From: an uncultured Planctomycetota bacterium
Lineage (GTDB): Bacteria > Planctomycetota > Planctomycetia > Isosphaerales > Isosphaeraceae
Reading direction: 5' to 3'
Assembly (NCBI GenBank): GCA_963823665.1
Contig: CAWGMQ010000004.1
Coordinates: forward strand, 448,001 to 512,000
Length of the DNA: 64,000 nt
Under the pieces are notes generated by a model that was not told where the DNA came from, did no database searches, and saw only the letters and a program-made list of their open reading frames with translations. Shown here one piece after another: positions 25,619 to 50,422 of the stretch; positions within the stretch are counted from its first letter, which is position 1; every line of letters begins with the position of its first letter. The position numbers were made by a program, and so were the translations under genes.

Positions 25619-25984
25619 CCTCGATGGTAGCTGAAAAAAGCCTGACGCACATCACAACGTCAGGCCCTGGTGGCCCTGCTGAAGTAACCGCGCGATTGCG
25701 GCCCAGTTCACAAGCAGTGCAACCGTAGTCACTGGAGTGAAGACCTACCGCCCGGTAGACTACACTACGTTCTCACATGCTCGAGTGCTCCGACGCCGAG
25801 CACGGCGAGACGGTTCTCGCCGACAACGAGGCGATTCAGCCAGGCATCGAGTACTCCCGACGTACAGCGCCGGCGATTTTTTGAGATGATTTTGGTTTTC
25901 TCCGCAAGTCTGCCACGCCCAAGACGTCTTTGTGTTTGAGGCGGGCTCCGATGGCCGGGGTGACCCGAAGCGGGAGATGTCTTT

Positions 25985-30537: not shown

Positions 30538-30609
30538 CGGATAGCAGACGCGCCGGACTCAAAATCCGGTCCCAGCAAGGGGGTATGGGTTCAAGTCCCA
30601 CCTTCGGTA
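30538..30609 (+). tRNA. 5'-truncated tRNA-Leu(CAA) (att-site remnant), copy 1
   Basis: GCAGACGCG, CCGGA-CTCAAAA-TCCGG (anticodon CAA 30560-30562), long variable arm, GGG-TTCAAGT-CCC, CTTCGGT-A. The 5' acceptor strand (GCCGAAG) is missing. Confidence 0.9.
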
Positions 30610-31018
30610 TTAACAACTCGGGGTGAATCGCACCGTCGTCGACGCATGCGACTTCTATCGCGCTGGAGAAGCGATACAGTCTTCCCCCTGCTCGGTTGGT
30701 GCACGGGCTTGGTTCGCACGTTTACTATCTTGCCAATAACGGACCTGTCCCGGTTTCCCCCCCATCTTGATCGAACTCCGGCCTTTCGCCGGCCGGAATG
30801 GATTCACCCAGCGGTGACGAATGCTCGCTGTTCGATTTTGGGGGCAGTGCAGGCCGGGCCGTTGCCATAGAGCATGCGCGGGGCAGGACTGTGCTTGTGC
30901 GCGGTGGCGAGCGGCGTGCCATCTTATTCTTGGCGGCTGTTAGGTGCTGACTCGAGAAACGCTCGGATCCGCACGGTGGCGGCTCTTCGGTCCAGGCAGA
31001 GAATACCGGGTTTGGTCG

Positions 31019-32788
31019 TCAGTCGGTGACCTGAATTTCGCGGAGCTCCTCCTCCGTTCGAGCGGTATCGTAGAGGGTTGCAGTGGATATCAGGGCGACC
31101 CGGGTGCTGGTTTCGTGCTTGGTCAGCGGCCTCAGATGGTCCCATCCGTCGATCTGCAGTTTGGGCCGATCGCTGCGTGCACTGAGGTCATCCTCCAAGT
31201 ATTGGAGATACTCGAATGTTGTGTGATCGATGAGGGGCACGGCCGGGCTCAGGTGAAGGCAGATCTCCCGCGTGTTGGGCGGCCGGTTTCTCAGCTCGCG
31301 AATCATGTGGAAGATGTTGAAACAGACGAGGGGGCCATTCACGAACAGGTGGCACTTGTCGGCGTCGACTTCCCTGCGGCTCACTGGGTTGCGAAAGAGG
31401 CTCACGAAGCGGGGGAGCAGACGCGCGTCGACGGGCGCCGAGGAATCACCATCCCGCAGGCTGCTCCACAGGCCCAGGTACCACATGCGGATCACCAGTT
31501 CCATGGCGATGCCGGCGAAGATGCCGATGAGCAGGTCGGTCGAGACGGTGACCAGAACGGTGACGGCGAAGACGAGCAACTGCTCCATGCCGATGTGCGC
31601 GACTTTTGCCCAAACCTTCGGTCGGCAGAGCTTAAAGCCAATGAAGACCAGGATCGCTGCCAGTACCGTTTTCGGCACCATGTTGATCAGGTTGCGGCCG
31701 AATATGAGGAGAGTCAAAAGGAAGCACGCGTTGAAGAAGTTGGCCCATTGCGTGCGGCCGCCTCCCATGATGTTGGCGGTGCTCTTGACGATTCCGGGAA
31801 TGATCGTCAATCCGCCGACTGCGCTCGAGCACATGTTGCAAGCGCCCATGGCGAGCAAGGTGCGGTCGGGGTCGGAGCGGCGGCGATAGGGATCGAGCTT
31901 GTCCACGGCGGCGATCGTGGCCAGGGACTCGGTACCGTCGATCATTACCAGGAGGACAACGAGGTACGCGAGCGGCAACCAGAACTGGTAATTGCCCAGC
32001 GCTTTCCCGAAACGGGGCAGAACGATACCGTTCTCGAGCAAATTCGCGGGCACGTTGATCAGGTTCTGTGGGCCCAAATGCAGGAAGAACAGGCTGACCG
32101 CCGTGCCCAGGATGAAGATCCACACTGGAGGCGGCATGAGCTTGAAGAGCCGCCAGGGGATCGCGGCCAGGATAAAGAGGAGAGCGGTGCACACGATCCC
32201 CAGTCCCAGGACCTGGAGATTCATCGACGCGAAGTGATGAGGTGCTTCCTGGAGCATGGGCCAGAACTCATGGGCTTCGAAATCCAGGCCCATGAACAGG
32301 GGTATCTGCTTGGCGATGATCAGGAGACCAATAGCCGCCAGCATGCCCTCGATCGCGGCCGCCGGGAAGATGGCGCTCAACCGGGCCACTTTCAGCCTGG
32401 CGAGAACCAGTTGCACGAGGCCGGCGCAGCAAATAGCCACCAGCACGAGGGGGTAACCCGCCTTTAGCATTTCGTCTTGGCCGGCGCGCTTGCCCACGTC
32501 TACGCTCCCGAGCCAGATCATTCCGGCGAACAAAGGCGGCGCCAGTCCGGCGGCGGGCCCGCTGATCGTCACGTACGACCCACCCAGGAACGGGAGTACG
32601 AAACCAGCGATGATCGCTGAGATGATCCCGCATATCGGCGGCGCGCCGGAGGTTATGGCGATCCCCATCGAAAACGGCAGTGAGATCATCGACACCATGA
32701 ACCCCGAACGTAGATCGTACGGCCAATGCTTCAGACCCATCAGACCGTTCTGGGGCTTCTCCATTGTTTTTGTTGAATCAACGTGCAT
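31019..32788 (-). CDS. sulP: SulP/SLC26 anion (bicarbonate/sulfate) transporter with C-terminal STAS-like region
   Basis: 'DLRSGFMVSMISLPFSMGIAITSG', 'ISGPAAG', 'IVKSTANI..GGRT'; many TM helices. Confidence 0.92.
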   Translation of the reverse strand: MHVDSTKTMEKPQNGLMGLKHWPYDLRSGFMVSMISLPFSMGIAITSGAPPICGIISAIIAGFVLPFLGGSYVTISGPAAGLAPPLFAGMIWLGSVDVGKRAGQDEMLKAGYPLVLVAICCAGLVQLVLARLKVARLSAIFPAAAIEGMLAAIGLLIIAKQIPLFMGLDFEAHEFWPMLQEAPHHFASMNLQVLGLGIVCTALLFILAAIPWRLFKLMPPPVWIFILGTAVSLFFLHLGPQNLINVPANLLENGIVLPRFGKALGNYQFWLPLAYLVVLLVMIDGTESLATIAAVDKLDPYRRRSDPDRTLLAMGACNMCSSAVGGLTIIPGIVKSTANIMGGGRTQWANFFNACFLLTLLIFGRNLINMVPKTVLAAILVFIGFKLCRPKVWAKVAHIGMEQLLVFAVTVLVTVSTDLLIGIFAGIAMELVIRMWYLGLWSSLRDGDSSAPVDARLLPRFVSLFRNPVSRREVDADKCHLFVNGPLVCFNIFHMIRELRNRPPNTREICLHLSPAVPLIDHTTFEYLQYLEDDLSARSDRPKLQIDGWDHLRPLTKHETSTRVALISTATLYDTARTEEELREIQVTD

Positions 32789-32921
32789 GAAGATCGTCCT
32801 TTCGGGCTACGCCGCTTCTTCAGGAGGGAGATGAGGAATGGATTGTATGATCGGAAGGCCGCGCATTGAACGCACAGCTCGTCAGCCGATCCCGGGCGCC
32901 ATCAAAGTGGCCACGTGGACG

Positions 32922-33560
32922 CTACATCGCCGACTTCCATAGACCCATGATTCGCTCCCGATCTAGTGCGGAAAAGGATTCGATCGATTTGCCCTCCCGC
33001 TTTCGGAGGAGGTCTGTAGGACCCGACGGTATTCGCCGATCCTCAAGCTCGCTGGGTACCAGGTCAGACGCCGGATTGTTCCGTCTGCGCAATTCCTGTA
33101 CTGCACGGCTGCGAGTTTCCGAGAGCAGCCGCGCCCGCGCTGCCGCAGGCGCGTCCGGCCGGATTTGCCGGAGCGCATTCGTTTCGGCCGCGTACCAAGC
33201 TAGCTCCTCTGCCGAGCCGATAATCAAGGGATACTCAACCATCGCCAATTGCAAATCGAGGAGCGTGCCGAAGAACGGGACCGACTGGCGCGCCCGCTTA
33301 CCAAGGGTTTGGTCGACAACCGCTCGCAGGTCGGCATTGAGCACCGCCGCAAGTCTCGCGCATTTGTAGTCACGGCAATCGAGTTGGGCCGAAGCGGAGC
33401 CGCGTTGGTGGGTTGCATCCCCGACTGCCGCCGTGGTCAGTCCTTCGCCGAAGGCGTAGAGACTGTCGCGGTGCAGGAACAACGGAGGTGACTCCGAGAA
33501 TGATCGCGCCGCGTGCTCAATCGCCGAAATTAGCTTCATGTCATCGTTCTTTTCTGTCAT
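32922..33560 (-). pseudogene. dabA: Degenerate N-terminal fragment of DUF2309/DabA (inorganic carbon pump subunit)
   Basis: 'AIEHAA...LFLHRDSLYAF' resembles the DabA FIHHNTLHAF start; 'ELAWYAAETNALRQIR' resembles planctomycete DUF2309. Only ~210 aa, with no Zn-ligand region. Confidence 0.6.
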
Positions 33561-33759
33561 CGCGGAGGGCGGGTGAAGTGTCCGCGCCCCCACGACCCAT
33601 GGCCCCGGGTCCGATCCTTGCATGACCGGGACGCGCTCAACGAAGGACAGAGCCGGCCCGTGATGGCAGGAAGGCGGCGTCCTGAGTGCTGTTAGCCCTC
33701 ATCTGTGCGGCGCAATTCGGCGATCACGCGCCTCGTTCTTGGTTTCGTGGTGACGACGC

Positions 33760-33826
33760 TCTCTTGACATTTTTAGGACTTAATCGAATATTGTCCAAAG
33801 ATGTCACATTGAGTCAAGAATGTCCT
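33760..33826 (+). promoter_or_regulatory. AT-rich sigma70-like promoter with GACAT/ATGTC inverted half-sites
   Basis: TTGACA (33764-33769), 17 bp, AATATT; TCTTGAC...GTCAAGA inverted pair; lies between divergent gene blocks. Confidence 0.55.
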
Positions 33827-33868
33827 GCCTGTACCAGTCGACCGCACCTAGCGGCAATGGGGGATCGA

Positions 33869-34036
33869 ATGCCCGAGACCGTCGTTCACTTCCAAATCCG
33901 CATGCCGCCGGTGGTTCACGAACAGCTCGCAAGTTGGGCCAAGGACGAGAAGAACTCGCTCAATGCGCTGATCGTGTCGCTTTTGGTCGAGTCCGCGGCG
34001 CGCCGAGACGCGGAGACCACCCGTGCGGCTGGCTGA
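33869..34036 (+). CDS. Arc/ribbon-helix-helix (HicB-C-like) DNA-binding protein
   Basis: 'VHFQIRMPPVVHEQLASWAKDEKNSLNALIVSLL' fits the RHH pattern. Confidence 0.8.
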   Translation: MPETVVHFQIRMPPVVHEQLASWAKDEKNSLNALIVSLLVESAARRDAETTRAAG

Positions 34037-34193
34037 CAATCCACGGTCGTTGCCATTCGCGCTGCCATGCGATGATCCGCGACATCACCCTGGTCGGCTA
34101 CTTTGGTCGTGCCTGGGCTCTCGGCGCGAGGCGTGTTATACTGAAATCGCCCCCTTTCTTAACACTTTCGGCGAAGGTACGCCGTGCCCCACC

Positions 34194-34928
34194 ATGAACC
34201 TCTCGGTCCGTGACGCCGCAAGTCTTCTGAAGGTTTCGGAAAAGACGATTTATCGCTGGATCCATCAGCAAGTCGTGCCCGCTTATCGGGTGCAGGAGCA
34301 GTACCGCTTCAACCGGGCGGAACTCTTGGAGTGGGCGACATCACGCAAGCTGAATGTCTCGAGCGAGATCTTCTTGGAGCCCGAGGCCGAGGGGTTGCCC
34401 ATTCCTACCCTGGTCGCCGCGCTTGAGGCGGGGGGGGTGCACTACCGGGTTTCGGGCTCCGACAAAGGAGGCGCGCTGCGCGAAGTCCTGCAACTGCTGC
34501 GCCTGCCAGACGAGGTGGACCGGGAATTCCTGCTTCGGGTACTTCTGGCGCGGGAGGCCATTGCACCGACTGCGATCGGTGATGGCATCGCTATTCCGCA
34601 CGTCCGGAACCCGGTCGTGCTGCATGTTGGCCGGCCTTCAATCACACTGTGCTTTCTCGAACAAGCTATCGATTACGGTGCCCTGGATTGCAAACCCGTG
34701 CATACACTGTTTACGATCATAAGCCCAACCACGCGGGCGCACTTGCACCTCATGTCCAGGTTGGCATTCGTCCTTCGAGACGCTGAAGTCCGCCACGCGA
34801 TCGAGCGGCAGGAATCCCGCCCGCAACTGCTCCGCGAGGTAGCGCGTGCTGAAGAGCAGCTCGCTCCGTCCAATACGCCTTGTCCGCCGCCGGTCGAGGT
34901 CGGCGCGTCGCACTCGGGCTTGCGCTAG
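34194..34928 (+). CDS. Excisionase-type HTH + PTS EIIA (PtsN-like) protein, paralogue 1
   Basis: 'LSVRDAASLLKVSEKTIYRWI' HTH; 'TAIGDGIAIPH' phosphoacceptor His motif. Confidence 0.9.
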   Translation: MNLSVRDAASLLKVSEKTIYRWIHQQVVPAYRVQEQYRFNRAELLEWATSRKLNVSSEIFLEPEAEGLPIPTLVAALEAGGVHYRVSGSDKGGALREVLQLLRLPDEVDREFLLRVLLAREAIAPTAIGDGIAIPHVRNPVVLHVGRPSITLCFLEQAIDYGALDCKPVHTLFTIISPTTRAHLHLMSRLAFVLRDAEVRHAIERQESRPQLLREVARAEEQLAPSNTPCPPPVEVGASHSGLR

Positions 34929-34972
34929 AGGTCTGGCGCGATGCGTCTCCAAGGTCGGGAGAGAAGATATCG

Positions 34973-35665
34973 ATGCAATTAACAGTTCGGGACGTCAGCA
35001 AGTTCCTCCAGGTGTCCGATTCCACGGTGACCCGCTGGATCAAACAGCGTGGTCTTCCTACCCATCAGGTCGGCGGTCGATTCCATTTCAACCGAGTCGA
35101 GCTCCTGGAGTGGGCGACGGCCAATCGCCTCAAGGTGTGTGTGGAGGCGTTCGACCAATTGGCGCCGGAGGACGAGCCCAGCTCAAGTCTGGTCGAGGCG
35201 CTCGAAACGGGCGGGATTTTCTATCACATGACGGATTCCACGAAGGAGCGTACATTGGGGGCCCTGGTCGAGGTATTGCCGCTTCCGGAGACCGTCGACC
35301 GCGAGTTGCTGCTTCGGCTCTTACTCGCCAGAGAAGCATCGGCAAGTACGGCAATCGGTGACGGTATCGCACTGCCGCATGTTAGAAACCCGATCGTTCT
35401 CCATGTCGCGCGCCCGATGGTCACCGCGTGTTTTCTGCAACATCCCGTCGACTTCGGTGCGCTCGATGGCAAGCCCGTGCACACACTCTTCTCCCTCATC
35501 TGCCCAACGGTGCGGAGCCATTTGCAGCTTCTCTCGCGGCTGTCATACGCATTGCATGATGTGAAGTTCAAGGACGTCGTGCTGCGCCAAGGCCAACGCG
35601 ACGAGATTCTGCGGGAGGCGCGCCGAGTGGAGGCAACGTTTGCCGCGCCGGCCAACCGCGCTTGA
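34973..35665 (+). CDS. Excisionase-type HTH + PTS EIIA (PtsN-like) protein, paralogue 2
   Basis: 'LTVRDVSKFLQVSDSTVTRWI'; 'STAIGDGIALPH'. Confidence 0.9.
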   Translation: MQLTVRDVSKFLQVSDSTVTRWIKQRGLPTHQVGGRFHFNRVELLEWATANRLKVCVEAFDQLAPEDEPSSSLVEALETGGIFYHMTDSTKERTLGALVEVLPLPETVDRELLLRLLLAREASASTAIGDGIALPHVRNPIVLHVARPMVTACFLQHPVDFGALDGKPVHTLFSLICPTVRSHLQLLSRLSYALHDVKFKDVVLRQGQRDEILREARRVEATFAAPANRA

Positions 35666-35679
35666 GGGCGAACCATTCG

Positions 35680-37680
35680 ATGGACGTCAAGGACGAACGC
35701 GGCCGGTCGAGGCATTCCGGGCAGAAACGGGACTCCCAAGGCTTACTCACGACGGTCTGCGGTGCGGGCGTCGTCGTCGCGGCCTGCTTCGTCGTTCTGA
35801 TTCCGACGCTTCAAGTCCTGGTCCGAGGGTCATCCCTGTCTGTGAGTCTGCCCTGGGACGTCCCCCACGGGAACTTCCGCATCGGCCTGGACATGCTTAG
35901 CGCATTTTTCCTGCTGCCCGTCCTGGTTCTTTCCGCGCTCGCAGCCGTTTACGGCGCCGACTATCTTCTGCCATTTCGCGGCAAGAAATCCCTTGCTACT
36001 TCCTGGTTCTTCTTCGCCACGTTTGTGGCCGGGATGGTGATGGTCTTGATCGCCCGGACGGCGCTCCTTTTCCTCATGTCGTGGGAGGCGATGTCGCTCT
36101 CGGCCTATTTCCTGGTCACGTTCGAGCACGAGAAGGACGATGTGCGCCGGGCGGGTTGGATCTATCTGGTCGCGGCTCACATTGGCGTCGCTTTTCTATT
36201 TGCGACTTTTTTCCTCCTCGGACGCCAGGCGGGCGGCCTTGATTTTGACTCGTTCTCGAGGATCCCGGCGATTGCAGCCGGTCCAGCGGGGTTGATCTTC
36301 GTGTTGGCGCTCGTCGGATTCGGCGCGAAAGCGGGCCTTGTTCCGTTCCACGTCTGGCTTCCCGAAGCCCACCCGGCCGCTCCGTCGCACGTCTCGGCCT
36401 TGATGTCCGGCGTGATGATCAAGATGGGCATATACGGGCTCCTTCGAGTTGTGTCCTTCATAGGCCCTCCCGCCTCATGGTGGGGGCTCTCCCTCGGTGC
36501 ATTGGGTCTACTCACCGCTCTGGTCGGGATCTCGCTGGCTGTTTACCAGCGAGATATGAAGCGAGTGCTCGCCTATTCCAGCATCGAGAACATGGGTCTG
36601 ATCGGCCTTGCCTTGGGTGCAGGTCTCTTCGGTTTCTCCAGTGGGCATAGCGCCGTCGCGGCGCTGGCCACATCGGCTGGGCTGCTTCACATCTGGAACC
36701 ACGCTCTGATGAAGTGTCTGATGTTCTTCGCCGCCGGCAGTGTGCTACATGGGACGGGCACAAAGGACATGGAAAAGCTCGGCGGAGTTGCGAGGAGAAT
36801 GCCATGGACCGGTGGCACGATGATCATCGGGGCGGTCGCAATTTCGGCGCTGCCGCCCTTGAATGGCTTCGTCAGCAAGTGGCTCTTGTACCTGAGCCTG
36901 ATGAAGTACGGTTTAACAACGGGTGGCGGGCGCGGCTTGACGGCCTTGCTCGCGGTCGGGGTCCTCGCCCTGGTTGGCGGTTTGGCGGGAATCGCGTTCG
37001 TGCGTCTGACGGGAATCGCACTGCTGGGTTCGCCAAGAAGCGAAGCCGCCCGCCACGCCCACGAGTCCTCGCCCTGGATGCTCGCCCCGATGGCGTGCCT
37101 GATGTTCCTTTGCTTGGCCGCGGCGGTCCTTCCTCAAGAGATCGCGCGACTTTTCCCTGGCATCTACGACCTGGTCCTCGGCAAGCGTGCCGGTCAGGGC
37201 TTCCCGGGTCTGGAGCCGCTTCAGGCGGGGCTGTCGACGCTCGGCATAATCGACGCCTGCACCGTGACCGCGCTCGCCGTGATGATGGCCGCCATTGGCG
37301 CGTTGATTCGAATAGGGGCGAAGGCTAAAGGCCCGACCTGGGGCTGTGGATACCTCGCCCCGACGCAACGGATGCAATACACCGGGTCGTCTTTCTCGGA
37401 AATGATGGCGGAGCACTTGCTGCCTCGCGTTCTGAGACCACGGACGACCCGGCAAGCTCCTCGCGGCTTGTTTCCATCCGCGAGTGAATTCGGCGAAGAG
37501 CGCCCTGATCCCTTTAGCGACAAGGTCTACGATCCGTTCTTCCGGCGCTGGGCGGAGCGTTTTTCTCGGCTTCGGATTCTCCAACAGGGAAAGGTCAACG
37601 TCTATCTGGTATACATCGTGTTCATGGTCGTGCTGGCCCTGGCGTGGGTGGCCTTCCGGGGGTACTGGAGCGCGTCATGA
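35680..37680 (+). CDS. hyfB: Hydrogenase-4/Ehr antiporter-like membrane subunit (HyfB-like), copy 1
   Basis: 'GAKAGLVPFHVWLPEAHPAAPSHVSALMSG', 'LAYSSIEN', 'TWGCGY'. Confidence 0.9.
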   Translation: MDVKDERGRSRHSGQKRDSQGLLTTVCGAGVVVAACFVVLIPTLQVLVRGSSLSVSLPWDVPHGNFRIGLDMLSAFFLLPVLVLSALAAVYGADYLLPFRGKKSLATSWFFFATFVAGMVMVLIARTALLFLMSWEAMSLSAYFLVTFEHEKDDVRRAGWIYLVAAHIGVAFLFATFFLLGRQAGGLDFDSFSRIPAIAAGPAGLIFVLALVGFGAKAGLVPFHVWLPEAHPAAPSHVSALMSGVMIKMGIYGLLRVVSFIGPPASWWGLSLGALGLLTALVGISLAVYQRDMKRVLAYSSIENMGLIGLALGAGLFGFSSGHSAVAALATSAGLLHIWNHALMKCLMFFAAGSVLHGTGTKDMEKLGGVARRMPWTGGTMIIGAVAISALPPLNGFVSKWLLYLSLMKYGLTTGGGRGLTALLAVGVLALVGGLAGIAFVRLTGIALLGSPRSEAARHAHESSPWMLAPMACLMFLCLAAAVLPQEIARLFPGIYDLVLGKRAGQGFPGLEPLQAGLSTLGIIDACTVTALAVMMAAIGALIRIGAKAKGPTWGCGYLAPTQRMQYTGSSFSEMMAEHLLPRVLRPRTTRQAPRGLFPSASEFGEERPDPFSDKVYDPFFRRWAERFSRLRILQQGKVNVYLVYIVFMVVLALAWVAFRGYWSAS

Positions 37681-39656
37681 GCGAGTGGCTGGTTGTATCG
37701 GGAACGATTGTGGCCGCCTTGAGCGGTCTGCCAGGCCTGTTGCGCGGTCGCGGTTCGATGAGCGGACAGTGGATGACCACCGTGCTTGCCGTGCTGGCGT
37801 CCGGCCTGGGCCTGGGGGGTGTCTTCTGGTTCTGGACGTCGGGAGAGAGCCGCCCGATCGTAATGCCCTGGGCCATCCCCGGCGCGCAGTTCAACGTAGC
37901 CATCGACGGTTTGTCGGCCTTCTTCCTTGTACCGGTCTTTCTGGTTTCGCTTTTGGGAAACATCTACGGGCTGGGCTACTGGAAGCAGACCGAGCACCCG
38001 CAGAACGGCCGGAGGCTCCGGGTTTTCTACGGAACGTTGACCGCCGGTATGGCACTGCAACTGATTGCACGCGACGGCATACTTTTCCTGTTCGGCTGGG
38101 AGATCATGGGCCTTTCGACCTTTTTTCTGATCATGACGGAGGACCAGGAAAAAGACGTCCAGGAAGCCGGGTGGATCTACCTGGTTGTCACGCATACTGC
38201 AACACTCTGCCTGTTCGGAATCTTTGCGCTCTTGCGCGCCGGCAGTGGCTCGTTCTTGATCGCCCCGCTTGAGCCGGATGCCCTGACGCCGGGAGTGGCG
38301 ACTGCGATTTTCGTGTTGTCGCTCGTCGGTTTCGGCTCGAAGGCCGGCATCATGCCCTTGCACATCTGGCTGCCCAGTGCGCACGCCGTCGCACCCAGCC
38401 ATGTCTCGGCGATCATGTCAGGGGTCAACATCAAAGTCGCCACATACGGCCTCATCCGCGTAATGTCCCTGATGCCAGCTCCGCCGCTGGCGTGGGGTGC
38501 CATCGTCCTGGCGCTGGGCGTGGTGTCGGGCGTCCTTGGCGTGGCGCTTGCTATCGGTCAACACGATCTGAAGCGGCTGCTGGCGTACCATAGCATCGAG
38601 AACATCGGAATCATCGTGATCGGGCTGGGACTGGCGCTCATCGGCCGCTCGATCGGCCGCGAGGATCTGGTGATTCTCGGTCTGGGTGGTTGTTTGCTGC
38701 ATGTCTGGAACCACGCCCTGTTCAAGGCCCTGCTGTTTTTGAGCGCCGGCTCCATCATCCACTCCGTCCACACCCGCGAAATCGATCATATGGGGGGTCT
38801 GGCGAAGTCGATGCCGTGGACTTCCCTCTGCTTCGTGGTCGGGTCGGTCGCGATCTGCGGCTTGCCGCCGCTGAACGGATTTGTCAGCGAGTTTCTCATA
38901 TACCTCGGCCTGTTCGGCACGCTCACAAACGGGGCCGGCCGCACGTTCGCCGGTGGATCGTTTGCCGCGCCGGCACTCGCCCTGATCGGCGCTCTGGCGG
39001 TCGCCTGTTTTGTGAAGGTATACGGAGCGATCTTCCTGGGTACGCCACGGTCGGAACATGCTCGGCATGCACACGAAGCTCCGCTCTCCATGATCGGGCC
39101 GATGAGCGTGCTGGTTGGGTGCTGCTTCCTGATCGGGCTCGCCCCACGGCGTGTGGCGCCGATGCTGGCGAGTGGTATCTCGGCCTGGGCACCGAGCCTG
39201 AACGAGCCGGGCTCGCGCCTCGTCTCGTTGGCCCCCCTGAACTGGATAACGACCATGGGCCTGCTGCTGGTCGCGGCCCTGATGTTGGCTGGCTCATTGC
39301 TACGGTTCCAGGTCGCCCGCGCTCCGGTCGCCAGCGGCGCCACCTGGGGTTGCGGTTACCTGGCGCCGACCCCGCGCATGCAATACACGTCGTCCTCATT
39401 CGCGCAGATGCTGGTCGGGATGTTCGCCTGGGTGCTTCGCCCCCGGACGCACGGGCCAGAAGAGTTGCCGCTGTTCCCGCGGCAGGCTAATTTCCACAGC
39501 GAAGTGCCCGACGCAGTGCTTGACGAGGCCGTGCTTCCTTTCTTCCATTTCACCGCAAGGCTGTTTTCCGCGTTCCGGGTGTTTCAGCAGGGAAACATTC
39601 AGGCTTATCTACTTTATATTTTCCTCGCCCTGATCATTCTGCTGCTTTGGCGTTAA
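37677..39656 (+). CDS. hyfB: Hydrogenase-4/Ehr antiporter-like membrane subunit (HyfB-like), copy 2
   Basis: 'PLHIWLPSAHAVAPSHVSA', 'LLAYHSIEN', 'PPLNGFVSE'; ATGA overlap with the previous gene. Confidence 0.9.
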   Translation: MSEWLVVSGTIVAALSGLPGLLRGRGSMSGQWMTTVLAVLASGLGLGGVFWFWTSGESRPIVMPWAIPGAQFNVAIDGLSAFFLVPVFLVSLLGNIYGLGYWKQTEHPQNGRRLRVFYGTLTAGMALQLIARDGILFLFGWEIMGLSTFFLIMTEDQEKDVQEAGWIYLVVTHTATLCLFGIFALLRAGSGSFLIAPLEPDALTPGVATAIFVLSLVGFGSKAGIMPLHIWLPSAHAVAPSHVSAIMSGVNIKVATYGLIRVMSLMPAPPLAWGAIVLALGVVSGVLGVALAIGQHDLKRLLAYHSIENIGIIVIGLGLALIGRSIGREDLVILGLGGCLLHVWNHALFKALLFLSAGSIIHSVHTREIDHMGGLAKSMPWTSLCFVVGSVAICGLPPLNGFVSEFLIYLGLFGTLTNGAGRTFAGGSFAAPALALIGALAVACFVKVYGAIFLGTPRSEHARHAHEAPLSMIGPMSVLVGCCFLIGLAPRRVAPMLASGISAWAPSLNEPGSRLVSLAPLNWITTMGLLLVAALMLAGSLLRFQVARAPVASGATWGCGYLAPTPRMQYTSSSFAQMLVGMFAWVLRPRTHGPEELPLFPRQANFHSEVPDAVLDEAVLPFFHFTARLFSAFRVFQQGNIQAYLLYIFLALIILLLWR

Positions 39657-39666
39657 AAGGAACGCG

Positions 39667-40584
39667 ATGGGAACGATCATTCATAACGCGATCCATGTGC
39701 TCCTGGCGCTCGGCCTGGCGCCGCTGCTGTTGGGGGTCATCGCCAAGACGAAGGCGCTTTTTGCCGGCCGCGTCGGGCCGCCGGTCTTGCAGCCGTACCA
39801 TGACCTCATGAGGCTTTTCCGAAAGGGCTCGGTCATCAGCACGACGACGACCTGGGTGTTCCTGGCCGGGCCGGTCGTGAGCCTGGTCACCGCGGGAATC
39901 GCGGTGCTGTTGATTCCACTCACGGAGTCCACGGCGCCGATCTCGTTCACGGGCGACTTGATTCTTTTAGCGTATCTCCTCGGATTGGGTCGATTCTTCA
40001 CCGCACTGGCAGCCCTGGACACGGGTTCTGCGTTCGAGGGCATGGGCGCCGCCCGCGAGGTTACCTTCGCCTGCCTGGCGGAACCGGCGTTCTTCCTGGG
40101 GCTGCTCGTGCTCGCCAAACTTTCCGGGTCACTTCAATTGGCGGGCATGTTAGGTGGGTCGATCGCGGCCGAATGGTCGACGGCGGGGGCCTCGCTCTGC
40201 CTTGTCCTGCTCAGTTGGTTCATCGTGCTACTTGTGGAGAACTCGCGGATTCCGTTCGATGATCCCAATACGCATCTGGAGCTCACCATGATCCACGAGG
40301 TGATGGTCCTCGATCACAGCGGGCCGGCCTTCGGCATGATCCTCTACGGGGCGGCGCTCAAATTGTTCGTGTTCGGCGCGCTGATCGTCCGCCTGGCATT
40401 CCCGCTCTCGAGCGGCTCTGCCTGGCTCGACTGGCCCATATTTGCCGGGGAGATGCTCGTCCTGGCGGCGGCCGTCGGCATTGTGGAATCGATCATGGCG
40501 CGGCTCCGCATGCCGCACATCCCCGTGCTCCTGCTCGCAGCCTGCTTGTTGTCGGCCTTTGGAATCATCCTGCTCGTAAGGTGA
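39667..40584 (+). CDS. hyfC: NuoH/HyfC/HycD-like membrane subunit
   Basis: 'GRVGPPVLQPYHDL', 'ENSRIPFDDPNTHLELTMIHE'. Confidence 0.92.
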   Translation: MGTIIHNAIHVLLALGLAPLLLGVIAKTKALFAGRVGPPVLQPYHDLMRLFRKGSVISTTTTWVFLAGPVVSLVTAGIAVLLIPLTESTAPISFTGDLILLAYLLGLGRFFTALAALDTGSAFEGMGAAREVTFACLAEPAFFLGLLVLAKLSGSLQLAGMLGGSIAAEWSTAGASLCLVLLSWFIVLLVENSRIPFDDPNTHLELTMIHEVMVLDHSGPAFGMILYGAALKLFVFGALIVRLAFPLSSGSAWLDWPIFAGEMLVLAAAVGIVESIMARLRMPHIPVLLLAACLLSAFGIILLVR

Positions 40585-40588
40585 AACG

Positions 40589-41230
40589 ATGGACCAGTTC
40601 GTCGATCCGCTCTTGATTCTGGCCCTCGCGCTCAACTTCGTGGCACTTGGCGTCAGCCGGATTCGCGGCGTGATCAGCGCGGTGGCGCTGCAGGGAATTC
40701 TGCTGGGGATTCTGGCGCTCCTGGTTCACCCGGTTGTCGGGCTACGGGGCATTCTGCTGGTCGTCGTGACGATCGGCTTGAAGGGATTCATCATTCCCAG
40801 GTTCCTCGTTCATGCCATGCGGGAGGCGAACATCCAGCACGAGGTCAAGCCGGTCGTCAACTTCATGTCCTCGCTCACGCTGGGGGCTCTCGGCACCGGC
40901 CTGGCGATGGTGTTTGCGTATACGCTTCCGCTGGCCGAGGAGCACAAGAACTCGCTGCTGGTGCCGGCCTCCCTTTCGACGGTATGGACCGGCTTCCTCA
41001 TGCTGACGACGCGCAAGGAGGCGATCAATCAGGTGCTCGGCTATTTGCTCCTGGAGAACGGGGTCTTCCTGTTCGGCCTGTTGTTGCTCGAGGCGATGCC
41101 CTTCCTCGTAGAAGTCGGCTTGTTACTCGACCTGTTCACCGGTGTGTTCGTGATGGGAATCGTTATCCACCACATCAGCCGCGAGTTCACCTCGATCAGC
41201 ACCGAGTATCTTTCCGAGTTGAAGGAATAA
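40589..41230 (+). CDS. hyfE: HyfE-like membrane subunit
   Basis: 'QVLGYLLLENG...LVEVGLLLD'; operon position. Confidence 0.88.
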   Translation: MDQFVDPLLILALALNFVALGVSRIRGVISAVALQGILLGILALLVHPVVGLRGILLVVVTIGLKGFIIPRFLVHAMREANIQHEVKPVVNFMSSLTLGALGTGLAMVFAYTLPLAEEHKNSLLVPASLSTVWTGFLMLTTRKEAINQVLGYLLLENGVFLFGLLLLEAMPFLVEVGLLLDLFTGVFVMGIVIHHISREFTSISTEYLSELKE

Positions 41231-42679
41231 GTGATGGCCTATTTATTGATCCTTTTCCCTCTTGCGATGGCGGCGGCGACGTTCGCCCTGCCTTCCAGCC
41301 GGGGCCGGGCCTGGCTGCTTCCCGTGGGGGCGCTCGGGCACCTTGTCCTGGTTTACCCGGCTGTGTTCCAGACCGGAACAGGCCCGGTACTGTCCGGGCT
41401 GGGAGGCTGGCTGCTACTCGATCCCGTAGGGAAGCTCGTGCTCGGCTTCCTGAGCGTGCTCTTTTTTCTAAGCTCCCTGTATGCGCCCGGCTATCTGGCT
41501 CTCCGCTCTGACCGACCGAACCGCGTCTTTTGCGCCAACCTTTTCGTGGTGCAGTCGATGATGACGCTGGTGGCGCTCTCGCACCATCTCGGGTTGATGT
41601 GGGTGGCGATGGAAGCGATGACATTGGCCACGGCCCCGCTACTGTACTTCAACCACAACGCCCGCTCGCTGGAGGCGACCTGGAAATACCTCTTGATTGG
41701 CTCGGTGGGTATTGCTCTGGCGCTCTTGGGCTCGTTCTTCCTGGCGTATGCATCTCTCAAGTCCGGCCTGGAATCGACGTTGCTATTCGACCAGCTCGTC
41801 AAGGATGCTCCGCATCTTTCACCGCCCTGGCTGCACGCGGCGTTCGTGCTGCTCTTCATCGGCTACGGGACCAAGATGGGTCTGGCGCCCATGCACACGT
41901 GGAAACCGGACGCCTACGGAGAGGCCCCTGGAATCGTGGGCACGCTTCTCGCGGGGGGCGTCACTAGCTGCGCCTTCCTGGCGATCTTGCGAGTTTATCA
42001 AATCTGCCGCGCCGGGGCCGACGCCGAGTTCGCCCGCGAGCTGATGGTGTTCATGGGCCTGCTGTCAATGGCCATCGCCGCGGTCTTCATGGTTCGCCAG
42101 CGTGACTTCAAGCGTATGCTGGCATATTCAAGTGTAGAGCACATGGGCATTCTTGTGCTGGGCATCGGAATCGGTGGCCTGGCCGTGTACGGTGCATTGT
42201 TGCATCTCATCAATAACGGGCTCACGAAGGGAGTGCTGTTTCTATCGGCGGGCAACATCCACCGAGCTTATGGGAGCAAGTTGACGGACAACGTGCGGGG
42301 AGCCATCGTGCGCGTACCTCTGTCTGCGTCACTCTTCCTTGCAGGCTTCCTGGCCGTTACGGGCTCTCCCCCGTTCGCCCCATTCGTGAGTGAGTTTACC
42401 ATTGTGAACGCCGCAGTCGGCAGCGGGCAATATCTCGCCGGCGGGCTCTTCCTGCTCTTGCTCGGCATCGTCTTCATCGGCATGGGTGTAACCGTGCTGT
42501 CCGTGGTGCAGGGTAAGCCCCCGGAGCAGCAAGAACACGGCCGATTCCACGACAGTATCAGCACCGGTGGCCCGATCATCCTGTTCATGGCATTGGTGGT
42601 GCTCCTTGGCCTCTATGTCCCGCCTCCTTTGGATTCGCTTGTACGCGACGCTGCCGTATCCTTGGAGGTAAGACGATGA
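41231..42679 (+). CDS. hyfF: HyfF-like antiporter membrane subunit
   Basis: 'SLEATWKY', 'GYGTKMGLAPMHTWKPDAYGEAP', 'KRMLAYSSVEHMG'. Confidence 0.92.
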   Translation: MMAYLLILFPLAMAAATFALPSSRGRAWLLPVGALGHLVLVYPAVFQTGTGPVLSGLGGWLLLDPVGKLVLGFLSVLFFLSSLYAPGYLALRSDRPNRVFCANLFVVQSMMTLVALSHHLGLMWVAMEAMTLATAPLLYFNHNARSLEATWKYLLIGSVGIALALLGSFFLAYASLKSGLESTLLFDQLVKDAPHLSPPWLHAAFVLLFIGYGTKMGLAPMHTWKPDAYGEAPGIVGTLLAGGVTSCAFLAILRVYQICRAGADAEFARELMVFMGLLSMAIAAVFMVRQRDFKRMLAYSSVEHMGILVLGIGIGGLAVYGALLHLINNGLTKGVLFLSAGNIHRAYGSKLTDNVRGAIVRVPLSASLFLAGFLAVTGSPPFAPFVSEFTIVNAAVGSGQYLAGGLFLLLLGIVFIGMGVTVLSVVQGKPPEQQEHGRFHDSISTGGPIILFMALVVLLGLYVPPPLDSLVRDAAVSLEVRR

Positions 42680-44208
42680 ACGGCATTGATAGGTTAGCAA
42701 CCCTGCGAACCGGCCATGCCATCCCGCGGCCAGAAGTTCCGGTGCTGCCTTTTGCAGACTTTCGGAGCATCGTGGTCGAAGCGGTCAAGCGCGGGCAGCG
42801 TATCGTCGCGTTGTTTGGAAACATCGCCGATTCTTCGCCCGACGTGGAAATCTACGTCGTCCTTGCCGACAATGCCCGCGCGCAGCTACGCGCTGGCAAG
42901 GCGAGAATGACCTCGGACCGGTTTCCCTCGCTCACTCCCGAGTGCCCGCAGGCGCACCTTTTCGAGCGGGAGCTGGCCGAGCAATACGGGCTCCGTCCCG
43001 AGGGCCATCCCTGGTTCAAGCCGGTTCGCTTTCATAGCTCGTACCGCCCCGGCCACGACGCGTGGGGCAGGCAACCGGGCGAGCACCCTTCAGTCGGCGT
43101 CACTGACTTCTTCCGGGTTGAAGGCGAAGAGATCCACGAGGTCGCGGTTGGCCCGGTTCATGCCGGCGTCATCGAGCCTGGACATTTCCGCTTCCAGTGC
43201 CATGGCGAGCAAGTCTTTCACCTCGAGATCTCGCTTGGCTACCAGCATCGCGGTATCGAGCCCGCGCTGGTGGGCCGGCCGGACAAACGTACTGTTCATG
43301 TCATGGAACATGTGGCGGGCGACACCTCGATAGGCCATTGCCTGGCATACTGCCAGACCGTGGAAGCGCTAGCCGAGTGCCCGCCCTCGATTCGAGCGCA
43401 GACGATTCGCGGTATAGCGCTCGAACTGGAACGGCTGGCTAACCACACAGGGGACCTTGGAGCCTTGGCCGGTGACGTCGGATTCCTGCCGACAGCTTCA
43501 TTCTGCGGGCGGATCCGTGGCGATTTCCTCAACCTGACTGCTCTGCTGTGCGGCAGCCGGTTCGGCCGCGGGATGGTTCTGCCCGGTGGTGTCGGGCACG
43601 ATCTGGAGGAGGCCCGCACCGAGCAGTGCCTCACTCGCCTGGAAGCGGCGCTGGGCGATGTTACCGGCGCAGCAAATCTGCTCTGGAATTCCTTGTCCGT
43701 CCAAGCCCGATTCGAGGGCACGGGCACGATCTCCGAGGAGACTGCCGTCGCACTGGGTGTGGTCGGCCCCGCGGCACGGGCCTGCGGCTTGGAGAACGAC
43801 GTACGCCAGGATTTCCCCGAGGGCATTTATCGATTTGCTCACGTACCGATTTCTTCCTGGACCACGGGCGACGTGTTCGCCCGAGCTTATGTGCGATGGA
43901 TGGAGATCCAGCGTTCGGTGGCCTTTATCAAAGACCAGCTTCTGGCGTTGCCCGAAGGGCCGTTGCGATCCACCGTCGGCCCGCTGAAACCCGACCATTT
44001 CGCCATCTCGCTCGTCGAGGGCTGGCGCGGAGAGATCGGCCATGTGGCGCTCACCGACGCCCAGGGCCAGTTCGCACGATACAAGATCGTCGATCCGTCT
44101 TTCCACAATTGGACCGGACTGGCGATGGCACTCCGGGACCAGCAGATTTCCGATTTTCCGCTTTGCAACAAGAGCTTCAATCTGTCGTATTGTGGCCACG
44201 ACCTGTGA
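42676..44208 (+). CDS. hyfG: HyfG/HycE-like large subunit (NuoC+NuoD-like) without NiFe CxxC motifs (Ehr-type)
   Basis: 'VGPVHAGVIEPGHFRF', 'VEGWRGE'. L1 site reads 'EHVAGDTS'; C-terminus reads 'DFPLCNKSFNLSYCGHDL' instead of DPCxxC. Confidence 0.9.
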   Translation: MNGIDRLATLRTGHAIPRPEVPVLPFADFRSIVVEAVKRGQRIVALFGNIADSSPDVEIYVVLADNARAQLRAGKARMTSDRFPSLTPECPQAHLFERELAEQYGLRPEGHPWFKPVRFHSSYRPGHDAWGRQPGEHPSVGVTDFFRVEGEEIHEVAVGPVHAGVIEPGHFRFQCHGEQVFHLEISLGYQHRGIEPALVGRPDKRTVHVMEHVAGDTSIGHCLAYCQTVEALAECPPSIRAQTIRGIALELERLANHTGDLGALAGDVGFLPTASFCGRIRGDFLNLTALLCGSRFGRGMVLPGGVGHDLEEARTEQCLTRLEAALGDVTGAANLLWNSLSVQARFEGTGTISEETAVALGVVGPAARACGLENDVRQDFPEGIYRFAHVPISSWTTGDVFARAYVRWMEIQRSVAFIKDQLLALPEGPLRSTVGPLKPDHFAISLVEGWRGEIGHVALTDAQGQFARYKIVDPSFHNWTGLAMALRDQQISDFPLCNKSFNLSYCGHDL

Positions 44209-44227
44209 ATTCGCTTGAGGACGGTCC

Positions 44228-45043
44228 ATGTTTTCCATTATTCGGGAACGACTGCGGCAAGGCATGCGGACGATCGCTTTTCCCAAGAGCGTTCCCGCGC
44301 TTCCCGACCGCTTCCTTGGCTTGCCTGTTCTCGATGACTCGAAGTGCCCCGACGGCTGCCGCGCCTGCATCGAGGCGTGCCCCACCGACGCAATCGCGCA
44401 CGACGCCGCGGGCCTGGCCCTCGATATGGGGCGGTGCCTTTTTTGCAACGACTGCGTGAGAGCCTGCCCGCACGACGGTGCGATCCACTTCAGCCAGGAC
44501 CACCGGCTCGCGAGCCGGAGGCGCGATGACTTGATTGTGCGCAGCCGAGAAGAGCGAAGGCTGGTTGAACCTCTGGATGAGAAAATGCGCCAGCTCTTCG
44601 GTCGCTCGTTGAAACTCAGGCAGGTCAGCGCGGGCGGTGACAATGCCTCGGAGGCCGACTTGAGCGTGCTCGGAACCGTGGTCTTCGACATGGGCCGATT
44701 CGGCATCCAATTTGTGGCATCGCCGCGCCACGCCGACGGCATCGTCGTCACGGGGCCGGTCACCGAGAACATGAAGCAAGCGCTTCTTCAGACCTACGAG
44801 GCGGTGCCGGCCCCCAAGCTCGTGATCGCCGTCGGTGCAAATGCCATCTCCGGTGGAATATTTCGAGGCCACCCGGAGGTCAACGACGGAATCGACGGAA
44901 TCCTTCCCGTCGATCTCTATATCCCAGGCGACCCTCCCCATCCGCTGACGATCCTCGATGGCCTGCTGCGGCTCCTCGGCCGGCTCGAGGATCGGCTGCC
45001 GCTGGGGCGACGGTCGACAGTAAGGGACGCGTCGAGGCGATGA
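44228..45043 (+). CDS. hyfI: Fused 2x[4Fe-4S] ferredoxin (HyfH-like) + NuoB/HyfI-like small subunit with all four cluster Cys replaced
   Basis: CPDGCRACIEACP and CLFCNDCVRACP retained; 'ASPRHADGIVVTGPVT'; GGDNASE, GANAISGG and IPGDPP at the Cys positions. Confidence 0.9.
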   Translation: MFSIIRERLRQGMRTIAFPKSVPALPDRFLGLPVLDDSKCPDGCRACIEACPTDAIAHDAAGLALDMGRCLFCNDCVRACPHDGAIHFSQDHRLASRRRDDLIVRSREERRLVEPLDEKMRQLFGRSLKLRQVSAGGDNASEADLSVLGTVVFDMGRFGIQFVASPRHADGIVVTGPVTENMKQALLQTYEAVPAPKLVIAVGANAISGGIFRGHPEVNDGIDGILPVDLYIPGDPPHPLTILDGLLRLLGRLEDRLPLGRRSTVRDASRR

Positions 45044-45090
45044 GGGCTCGCTTCCGTCAGGGCACACATCTCGACGCTGGGGAGTCGCGA

Positions 45091-45375
45091 TCAATCATCC
45101 GGATGGTCGTGTGATTCTTGAGCCTGATCCTTGGCCCGAGTGACGCTTGGCGGTTCTGGTGGCGGCTTCGCGGCCGGGAATCCGTGGGCCTGGCAGAACA
45201 ACTCCGCGTTCAGCTCCAGGAATGCCGTATAGGCTTGGTCGATCGAGCGGTAGATCGCGCCGTTGCGGTCGAACCCAAGTTGGTCCATTCGACGACGACA
45301 GCGGTAGAGGAAGTCCATCATGGGCCGGATGCGGTCGCGGGTCGCCTGTGCTTGTCTTCGGCTGAGTATCCTCAT
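45091..45375 (-). CDS. Conserved small helical protein, copy 3 of 3
   Basis: Paralogue of 23957-24220 and 25297-25581. Confidence 0.7.
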   Translation of the reverse strand: MRILSRRQAQATRDRIRPMMDFLYRCRRRMDQLGFDRNGAIYRSIDQAYTAFLELNAELFCQAHGFPAAKPPPEPPSVTRAKDQAQESHDHPDD

Positions 45376-45412
45376 CCCGATAGTGTATAGATGAACACTA
45401 TTTGCTCGTCAA
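45376..45412 (-). promoter_or_regulatory. Leaderless promoter with palindromic operator (copy 3)
   Basis: ATAGTGT-ATAGATGA-ACACTAT...CGTCAA: arms conserved, spacer changed. Confidence 0.65.
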
Positions 45413-45785
45413 CCACGATGGTAGATGAAAAAAGGGCCGGACGCGTATCACCACGTCTGGCCCTGGTTTGTTTCTCTGTTGACGTAACCGCTCGGTTGAA
45501 GGCGTGTTCACCACCAGCGCATCCGTAGCCACTGGAGTGAAGACCCACCGCCCGGTACACTACCGGACGTCCTCGCGTGCTCGAGTGCTCCGACGCCGGA
45601 CACGACGCGACGATTCTTGCCGACGACGCGGCGATCCAGCCAAGCGTCGAGCAGTCAAGACCCGAAGCGCCGGCGATTTTTTGAAATGCTTTCGGTTTTC
45701 TCGGCAAGTCCGTCAGGCCCAAGACGTCTTTGTGTTTGAGGCGGGCCCCGATGGCCGGGGCGACCCGAAGCGGGAGATCTCCTTT

Positions 45786-49160: not shown

Positions 49161-50422
49161 GCCTGAGTCCGGATAGGAAAGCTTTTGGCGGTACGGAAGC
49201 CGTCCACTACAAGGATTTTCAGCATGGAGGCAACGCATGGAAGCCCACCCCGCCGGGAGTCTCCTTTCCTTTCTTGCCGCGGTTCCCGATCCTCGCAGCC
49301 GGCATGGCCGACAACATGCGCTTTCTGCAATCCTGGCGTTGGTGTGTTGTGCCATCATGTGTGGTGCGAAGGGCTACACCGCCATTGCACAATGGGCTCG
49401 GGACCAAGACATCGGGCTGATGCATCGACTTGGCTTCACGCGCAAACCTCCGAAAATGTGCGGCATTCGCAAAGTTCTAATCGCGTTGAACCCGAAGGCC
49501 TTCGAGGACGCGCTCTATCGGTGGGCCGAATCGTTGTTGGGCCGGCCAGTCTCGAGCGAGATTTTGTCACTGGAAGCCTTCGCGATCGACGGCAAGACGG
49601 CTCGTGGCAGCTTCGACGGCCTCGAAAAGCCGATCCACCTGCTCTCTCTGCTGGCTCACGAATCAGGGATAACGTTGGCTCAGACGCAGGTTTCCAACGG
49701 CGGTGAAAACAAGACCAACGAGCACAAGACGGCTCTTCAATTGCTCCGAAGCATCGTTCTCGAAGGGCGATTGGTAACCGGCGACGCCATGTTCTGTCAG
49801 CGTGACCTTTCCCAGCAGATCATCGATGCACACGGCCATTACCTTTGGTTTGTGAAGGACAATCAACCAACGCTCGTCAACGATATTAAGGTCGCATTCG
49901 CCGCTTCTGCTGAGGCGGCTTTTTCCCCCTAAACAGCGACGAATTTGGGAACAGGCGCAGGATACAGCCACGACCATGGACAAGGGCCATGGTCGTCGCG
50001 AACGCCGGACCTTGAAGGTGACGACCGCGTTGAGCGAGTATCTGGATTGGCCCGGTGTTGCCCAAGTCGGGCAGGTTGAGAGTGTGGTTGAGCAGGACGG
50101 GAAGATCTCACATGAGAGTCGTTACTTCATTACCAGCGTTCCGCGCCAACTGGGCGGCGCGAGTCGATTGCTCGTTTGGGGACGAGGGCACTGGTCAATC
50201 GAGAATCGGTCGCATTATGTGCGTGACGTCACGCTCGGAGAGGACGCGAGCCGAATCCGCAAGGGTTCTGGTCCGGAAATCATGGCTGCTCTGCGCAATG
50301 CTGCCGTTGGCTTCCTGAGGCTTACTGGCGCAACGAATATCGCCGAGACCGTCCGTCGCAACGCTTCCCAGGTCCGAGCACTCTTCACCAAACTCGGTAT
50401 CTTGAATCAGTGAACTGCCCTG
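49141..50422 (+). mobile_element. ISAs1-family insertion sequence, complete, with 10-bp target duplication
   Basis: Ends CAGGGCCGTTGAC and GTGAACTGCCCTG (imperfect inverted repeats); TSD CTCCAATCCC at 49131-49140 and 50423-50432. Confidence 0.92.
49237..50413 (+). CDS. ISAs1 DDE transposase in two frames (49237-49932 and +1 frame to 50413)
   Basis: 'VPDPRSRHGRQH', 'AIDGKTARGS', 'VTGDAMFCQR', 'VKDNQPTL', then 'KGHGRRERR', 'RGHWSIEN..HYVRDVTLGEDASR'. Confidence 0.9.

Follow-up and report, generated by a model that had tools for sequence, protein, structure and literature searches.

What can a hydrogenase-derived membrane complex do once the ligands of its metal sites have gone, and why do its genes stand next to genes of inorganic-carbon uptake? 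The question arises at an ehr operon (hyfB, B, C, E, F, G, H/I) of a soil planctomycete of the Isosphaeraceae (hereafter, the family), which is preceded by two genes for proteins that join a helix-turn-helix (HTH) domain to EIIA and is divergent from sulP and a fragment of dabA. The window, i.e., the whole stretch of DNA that was analyzed, covers 64,000 nucleotides (G000:C4:448001-512000; genome G000, 16.5 Mb, 92% complete). An earlier reading made from the letters alone (the sequence-only reading) had proposed that three antiporter subunits with a cofactor-stripped peripheral arm form a machine for pH, cation and carbon homeostasis, regulated by the phosphotransferase system (PTS) and possibly replacing a decayed DAB pump. 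Of this proposal, an Ehr complex without ligands for NiFe and the N2 cluster and a carbon link within the family stood, and PTS control gained support; the fully stripped arm and a general carbon link did not stand, and the replacement of the DAB pump is doubtful. The account that we favor, tentatively, is that Ehr in the window is a non-redox cation/proton transporter that would be gated by EIIA through PTS phosphorylation and would aid bicarbonate uptake and pH control. Among its parts, a non-redox transporter is reasonably probable, and for a mechanistic role of Ehr in carbon uptake we see even chances.

An Ehr complex without NiFe and N2 ligands

Ehr complexes are described as NiFe-less and of unknown function (including PMC4758237, PMC13066512), and the missing NiFe CxxC motifs are their defining trait (PMC10284858, PMC6349859, PMC7304191; published sources are cited here and below for their available parts). 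The large subunit EhrL lacks both motifs, as judged from its alignment to HycE and from column counts, and neither the NiFe ligands nor the proximal cluster of group 4 [NiFe] hydrogenases is found. We are practically certain that the operon belongs to the Ehr complexes. Described Ehr small subunits generally keep the N2 cluster, and its four cysteines, which lie outside the published definition of Ehr, are common in the Ehr small subunits collected here. In the window EhrS, D138, S141, N205 and D235 replace the four N2 cysteines of MbhJ and HycG, and we hold with high confidence that the cluster is absent from this complex. In its model, EhrS adopts the HycG/NuoB fold; confidence is low around the loop of the former cluster. 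Since the NiFe and N2 ligands are missing, the complex cannot produce hydrogen by the known route, and electrons are unlikely to reach the old site.

The loss is shared by close relatives. Among the best 119 of 8000 homologue clusters scored (70-88% identity), none of the four N2 cysteines is left in 61 and one in 58, and all 119 keep the eight ferredoxin-type cysteines, as does the window EhrS. The description of the arm as cofactor-stripped is therefore correct for the NiFe and N2 ligands but not for the two ferredoxin-type [4Fe-4S] sites, which are intact. On a 143-row small-subunit tree with the ligand columns masked, the N2 state changes four times: fifteen N2-less rows of the family form one clade (support 98), and separate losses occurred in Bacteroidota, at one Eisenbacteria locus and in one other planctomycete. 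On the large-subunit tree, the N2-less family members fall into two groups instead of one clade; both trees were built by FastTree from the homologues collected here, without a named Ehr reference, and their branch order is provisional.

The membrane arm tells a different story from the N2 site. As had been claimed, the three large membrane subunits are Mrp-antiporter-like, all keeping TM5 Glu, TM7 Lys and TM12 Lys or Glu (TM, transmembrane helix), i.e., a Glu/Lys axis of the MrpA/D type, and TM7 Lys is found at N2-less loci in 12 of 13 HyfB and 12 of 12 HyfF proteins. Because the antiporter residues are kept and the N2 ligands lost, the membrane arm is intact and the cysteine wire ends early, after the two ferredoxin-type sites.

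These retained sites are also the starting point for a redox pump, in which electrons from a soluble donor would enter by the ferredoxin-type clusters and move on either to a metal site with non-cysteine ligands or straight to an acceptor in the old active-site cavity. The invariance of the eight cysteines fits it, and so does position 138, which is Asp in 113 of the 119 homologues and could hold another metal. EhrL likewise retains many invariant charged residues, candidate donors are encoded elsewhere in the genome, and ferredoxin- or formate dehydrogenase-coupled roles of Ehr have been proposed (PMC6349859, PMC7894505). However, the other three ligand positions are occupied by 5-7 different residues, Ala, Pro, Trp and Phe among them, a pattern that does not resemble a new metal site, and no donor gene is linked in the screened loci; we rate this redox pump as rather unlikely. 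A new metal site in EhrL of the N2-less forms was considered and rejected, as no diagnostic column was gained in 17 N2-less against 109 intact rows. A different point weighs against an Mrp-like transporter, namely that the full MrpABCDEFG set is not present: none of the 13 proteins scanned is MrpE/F/G-like, and the sodium path of Mrp probably requires these subunits.

Could the operon simply be a decaying relic? The Geobacter Ehr is treated as non-functional (PMC13194489), the adjacent dabA is decaying, and the copy at the ancestral site (described below) is deleted. The selection data contradict this: all frames of the ehr operon are open, and eleven module genes are under purifying selection, with ratios of nonsynonymous to synonymous substitution (dN/dS) of 0.04-0.18 relative to G029, a genome of the same genus (sulP 0.12, HTH-EIIA copy 1 0.04, hyfH/I 0.09; 0.39 for the dabA remnant). 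The N2-less state is moreover conserved over the 119 clusters, and a relic is thus extremely improbable.

HTH-EIIA is predicted to dock on EhrL

The two HTH-EIIA proteins are 52% identical to each other and carry an HTH_17 domain with E values of 6e-15 and 3e-12. Of the 148 loci examined, 110 were evaluable, and at 80 of these, from many phyla, an HTH-EIIA gene stands directly upstream of hyfB; 95 of 102 matches retain the phospho-histidine of EIIA. His136 of copy 2 aligns with the PtsN motif and is invariant in 77 alignment rows; the proteins score ~49 bits against the PtsN equivalog cut-off of 138.7. Four HPr genes are present in G000. At one other locus (L130, 5726-6079), an HPr gene lies directly upstream of the HTH-EIIA gene of the Ehr operon.

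We co-folded EhrL, EhrS and HTH-EIIA copy 2 (this copy only) with one alignment each. The predicted docking scored 0.86, compared with 0.00 for the best of three controls, none of which was an unlinked EIIA paralogue; the runs share at least 95% of contacts, and the predicted local distance difference test score (pLDDT) of the partner is at least 86. The mark applied is passed by 116 of 157 solved complexes and by 2 of 215 mismatched pairs, rates that are only rough for a three-chain job. Confident contacts are predicted with EhrL only, at residues 378-396 and 423-428, and the EIIA side comprises residues 137-144, just past His136, together with 118-124, 178-184 and a few HTH residues. The solved EIIA relatives that were matched are four PtsN entries only, and to our knowledge there is no solved EIIA-NuoD complex, so that a pass due to memorized structures is less likely.

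The predicted patch decays where the EIIA gene is missing. An aromatic residue occupies EhrL position 387 at 66 of 77 EIIA-linked loci vs. 1 of 26 EIIA-less loci, with four ambiguous loci set aside along with 38 unevaluable ones, and with the metagenome rows added, the counts are 84 of 101 and 2 of 28. Interface columns, drawn from 10 of 250, supply 4 of the top 15 columns that track the EIIA gene (p 0.0014). Taken together, we consider direct binding of HTH-EIIA to EhrL probable, and this predicted docking is what is new here. PTS control, as the sequence-only reading had it, gains support from the conserved phospho-histidine and from a docking prediction above the mark. A full-text literature search, with Coppi 2005, Marreiros 2013 and supplements outside its scope, returned neither an N2-less Ehr nor EIIA-Ehr binding. 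At the metagenome locus L233, the membrane genes lie on the other strand and EIIA remains with hyfG and hyfH/I, an arrangement that fits a partnership of EIIA with the large subunit.

Several points weigh against a gating role. In independent pairs, residue 387 does not track the EIIA gene significantly (median p 0.25 and 0.625), and the test of interface columns treats columns that are non-independent, with surface columns more variable than the core. Most EIIA-linked Ehr complexes retain N2, so the docking is not tied to the redox loss. Furthermore, the HTH domain points to a function at DNA. HTH-EIIA might then be purely a transcription factor for the operon, as its HTH_17 domain and its first position in the operon would allow, and the docking prediction would be false; this is compatible with either transport model discussed here. 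Yet the docking passed with clean controls, loci that lack the gene show a decayed patch, and the conserved promoter box (see below) travels with a different regulator gene, that of the ribbon-helix-helix (RHH) protein. We judge this purely transcriptional role unlikely, though it deserves weight.

Carbon-uptake genes neighbor the operon within the family

The small-subunit gene is found in 32 of the 121 genomes of the family. In 20 of these 32 (13 of 18 genera), a gene for SulP, beta-carbonic anhydrase, SbtA or DabA lies within ~4 kb of the operon, whereas gene counts and genome sizes predict 0.26 carbon-adjacent operons; in seven of the 12 negatives a contig end cuts one flank short, and the related genomes are non-independent. 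The four gene families occur in at least six arrangements, in which the gene family, its side and its strand all vary.

Beyond the family, only a minority of Ehr loci (4-9%) have the carbon link, and here the evidence turns against the favored account. In other Planctomycetota (a sample of 400 genomes, 52 with a match), a carbon gene stands in 3 of 40 Ehr regions from 39 genomes, all three in one distant family. SulP is present at 3 of 76 other GTDB loci, which are the best 80 of 548 less four duplicates and were read mostly by BLAST and motif with 2-3 kb visible upstream. Of 599 metagenome loci, the best 80 were screened, and 7 of them have a carbon gene. Three N2-less loci of Bacteroidota have no carbon neighbor. 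The linkage that the sequence-only reading had envisaged between Ehr and carbon genes therefore holds within the family but not as a general trait of Ehr. Nor could its expectation for Cys-less HyfI homologues be upheld: 13 of 21 N2-less family members have the carbon link vs. 7 of 11 others (p 1.0), a count in which the N2 state was read from partial motifs at six loci that are frameshifted or cut, and independent pairs are not significant either. On these grounds we rejected the idea that N2 loss marks the carbon link.

These distributions would fit an Ehr that is a general device for ion and pH homeostasis under EIIA, with the carbon genes co-located through shared acid or low-CO2 stress and without coupling. 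Most loci outside the family lack a carbon neighbor, the neighbors within it vary in family, side and strand, and the EIIA link is far steadier than the carbon link; pH homeostasis has also been suggested for ehrABCDLS (PMC6688271). On the other hand, recruitment recurred in four unrelated families of carbon-uptake genes, in some cases within one operon, and sulP relocated with the operon though a second sulP stays at the ancestral site. Uncoupled homeostasis is a possible explanation to which we give a little more than one chance in four; the favored account of a transporter that aids bicarbonate uptake is the one followed below.

Several individual loci illustrate the variety. The metagenome loci L225 and L233 carry, in a single orientation, ehr genes together with a DAB operon of three genes and SulP, and at L240 SbtA and carbonic anhydrase are directly upstream of hyfG. 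Six genomes of one genus (L096-L099, L161, L162) have SbtA directly upstream of a divergent Ehr with the order hyfB-C-E-G-H/I-F, without EIIA and with N2 intact where readable. At L071, L073 and L078, the Ehr operons are of a Melainabacteria type without EIIA, and a formate/nitrite channel is encoded close upstream on the opposite strand. Paired Ehr operons, convergent or tandem, occur at L048, L084, L033 and L127.

The dabA remnant, SulP and the DAB pump

DAB (DabA/DabB) is a proton motive force-coupled CO2 pump (PMC13144422). The dabA fragment of the window has no Pfam match; it aligns with the N-termini of two longer DabA proteins, an intact one of 1058 aa (35% identity, E 2e-31) and one of 986 aa encoded at the corresponding position in G029 (72% identity). 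From the assembly and this comparison, ~2.5 kb including the zinc domain has been deleted. PF10070 is unmatched throughout G000 and matched in 86 of the 121 family genomes. Neither the full-length DabA with its zinc site nor DabB, both of which a DAB pump needs, is found at the locus, where a 212-aa fragment stands without dabB. The G029 DabA (L085, 3568-6525; 986 aa) is an orphan without dabB, transcribed divergently from the ehr operon. It is 47% identical to intact family DabA, aligns to positions 91-567 of the 747 of PF10070 only, and retains the zinc-site residues (site according to PMC13144422).

The sequence-only reading had suggested that the module replaces the decayed DAB pump, i.e., that it would perform vectorial CO2 hydration by itself or with a docked carbonic anhydrase. 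The shortened dabA without another match in the genome is in line with this, as is the orphan dabA with zinc-site residues at the same place in G029. DabA is also rarer in Ehr-positive genomes of the family (15 of 32 vs. 71 of 89 Ehr-negative, p 0.001; 7 of 13 vs. 28 of 34 in good assemblies only, p 0.065), in counts where related genomes are non-independent and assemblies incomplete. Against it, the window module retains no carbonic anhydrase domain, a DabA match is retained in 9 of 21 N2-less family genomes, and whole DAB operons stand beside Ehr at L150, L152, L225 and L233. The suggestion is doubtful and weakly supported, and we consider a replacement very unlikely.

The divergent sulP encodes a member of the SulP family that scores 114 bits with the BicA model, whose cut-off is 880, and of six close homologues at other places in the family, none has a carbon or Ehr neighbor by a BLAST screen. 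Both observations count against a part in bicarbonate uptake, and consequently bicarbonate can be only an inferred substrate. No solved structure was matched by SulP at 1e-20 or by HyfF at 1e-32.

Proposed mechanism and significance

In the account that we favor, the three antiporter-like subunits would carry out secondary cation/proton antiport driven by the proton motive force, and the hydrogenase-derived arm would serve as scaffold and switch, its two remaining clusters being perhaps structural or sensory. HTH-EIIA would dock on EhrL by the face that bears His136; as this face lies in the predicted interface, phosphorylation from HPr would alter the binding, and transporter activity would be tied to the state of the PTS, much as PtsN acts on potassium transporters. 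The resulting cation gradient or pH control might feed uptake of the SulP/SbtA type, as proposed for mnh and SbtA, with the neighboring SulP presumably carrying bicarbonate. A wider version, in which HTH-EIIA is a regulatory Ehr subunit in many phyla with its phospho-histidine face on EhrL as the PTS switch of a complex-I-like ion transporter, and the planctomycete form, its electron wire cut at N2, is governed by phosphorylation rather than redox and energizes bicarbonate uptake, is rather unlikely, though only slightly less probable than the favored account.

Ehr is a widespread relative of complex I whose function is called unknown in the papers cited above. An N2-less variant with a membrane arm under selection offers a test of whether that arm can function without coupling to electron transfer. 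The EIIA-EhrL contact, if true, would give PTS regulators a new class of target; the prediction applies to most Ehr operons of this subfamily and names testable residues. The carbon-gene neighborhood points to low CO2, acid, and sodium or potassium stress as relevant conditions.

Gene layout, promoter box and relocation of the module

The open reading frame list and family scans confirm the gene order and strands that had been reported, with dabA'-sulP on the minus strand and RHH, two HTH-EIIA genes and hyfB, B, C, E, F, G, H/I on the plus strand (Table 1). Gaps from the second EIIA gene through hyfH/I measure -4 to 19 bp. Also as reported, hyp, formate dehydrogenase and NuoEFG genes are absent, since HypD, NiFe large subunit, molybdopterin oxidoreductase and NuoF were unmatched in the window; HypD, NiFe large subunits, molybdopterin enzymes and NuoF are all matched elsewhere in G000. 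Outside the main complex I cluster, G000 also has antiporter-like genes and a second NuoB-like gene (G000:C3:1766168-1769437, C10:1420555-1428278).

Table 1. Features of the module and their positions in the window.
Feature	Position	Strand	Basis or remark
sulP, SulP/SLC26 anion transporter, 589 aa	31019-32788	-	PF00916, E 9e-48
dabA remnant, N-terminal 212 aa of ~1000-aa DabA	32922-33560	-	zinc domain deleted
AT-rich promoter/operator box, conserved	33764-33830	.	36% GC; sigma-70-like sites on both strands, TGTC repeats
RHH, ribbon-helix-helix protein, 59 aa	33857-34036	+	PF05534 and PF03869 above cut-off
HTH_17-EIIA copy 1, phospho-histidine retained	34194-34928	+	PF12728 and PF00359
HTH_17-EIIA copy 2, His136 retained, predicted to dock on EhrL	34973-35665	+	domains, alignment, model
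HyfB/EhrA-1, antiporter-like; TM5 Glu, TM7 Lys, TM12 Lys	35662-37680	+	family scans, alignment
HyfB/EhrA-2, antiporter-like; TM5 Glu, TM7 Lys, TM12 Glu	37677-39656	+	42% identity to EhrA-1
HyfC/EhrB, NuoH-like membrane anchor	39667-40584	+	PF00146
HyfE/EhrC, small membrane subunit	40589-41230	+	NF008556, E 1e-18, below cut-off
HyfF/EhrD, antiporter-like; TM5 Glu, TM7 Lys, TM12 Glu	41231-42679	+	family scans, alignment
HyfG/EhrL large subunit, NuoC+NuoD fusion, without NiFe CxxC	42676-44208	+	alignment to E. coli HycE (7z0s_E)
HyfH/I (EhrS) fusion, two ferredoxin-type [4Fe-4S] sites	44228-45043	+	alignment to MbhJ and HycG

The AT-rich intergenic promoter of the sequence-only reading shrinks to the 67-bp box of Table 1, as the intergenic stretch overall has 60% GC. 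The box contains three promoter-like sites, overlapping and on both strands, compared with 0.4 in shuffles, and it is conserved at L085 and L157 by alignment and at L094 by eye, all three of which carry the RHH gene. Besides the window, the RHH gene is present at three Ehr loci of the family, with sulP near each. The box is likely the site of the RHH protein, which would control both divergent transcripts through it. Repeats flanking the promoter are at chance level only. A riboswitch was rejected, since an Rfam scan of seven loci gave 0 matches at the cut-off, with one chance-level match in the window region.

The window and G029 are collinear over 31008-45000 and diverge beyond both ends. 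Elsewhere in G000, at L171 (G000:C8:2112000-2127000; 5434-10693), flanks of the G029-type module enclose only a second sulP copy, 92% identical to the first; dabA, RHH, EIIA and ehr are all deleted, and sulP stands between a CHAD-like gene and an extracytoplasmic function sigma gene (names read from sequence). As read from these comparisons, the module moved as a block and L171 is its ancestral site; the window copy may have come by duplication or from a relative. At 30540-30610 we noticed the 3' part of a tRNA-Leu-like sequence (read by eye; no tRNA call by ARAGORN), which has 31 matches in the genome and a second window copy at 50845-50953, and such fragments are likely attachment sites of an island. 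Direct repeats of 80-94% identity lie on either side of the module (23964-24268, 25255-27244 and 45049-47043) and span a 94-aa open reading frame and the start of Ser/Thr kinase genes. An integrase gene (51376-52473) and a transposase piece (49237-49932) are nearby.

Comparison with known systems

Among solved structures, the large, small and HyfB subunits come closest to those of E. coli Hyd-3/Hyd-4 (HycBCDEFG, Hyf) and Pyrococcus Mbh (7z0s, 6cfw), and unlike these, the window complex has no NiFe or N2 ligands and no linked formate dehydrogenase or maturation genes. With Mrp and the cyanobacterial mnh (slr2006-2013), it shares antiporter-like subunits, a charged axis and a partnership with a bicarbonate transporter; mnh is co-regulated with SbtA and has been tentatively proposed to power it (PMC4390856). 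It differs from them in its two-cluster hydrogenase-derived arm and NuoH-like anchor, and no MrpE/F/G-like genes were seen. In Acidithiobacillus caldus, hyfBCEFG adjoins beta-carbonic anhydrase, and pH and CO2 homeostasis was suggested (PMC3826726).

The likeness to DAB lies in the NuoL-like membrane subunits and in the DabA gene fragment (PMC13144422); in contrast to DAB, the zinc domain is deleted, the locus has no dabB, and the window HyfB is 26-27% identical to family DabB. HTH-EIIA shares the EIIA fold and the conserved phospho-histidine with PtsN, the regulator of TrkA, KdpD and YcgO, which controls potassium transporters by direct binding (PMC13104625). Unlike PtsN, the EIIA of the window is fused to HTH_17 and encoded in the operon of its target, and its predicted target is NuoD-like.

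With the Ehr of Geobacter sulfurreducens (GSU0739-0745), the window complex shares its subunit classes (two NuoL-like EhrA, EhrB, C, D, L and S) and the lack of NiFe CxxC motifs (PMC7894505, PMC10284858, PMC6349859). From Ehr as described in the available parts of these papers, the window complex is set apart by an EhrS without the four N2 ligands, by the divergent sulP/dabA and the RHH gene, and by the predicted docking of HTH-EIIA.

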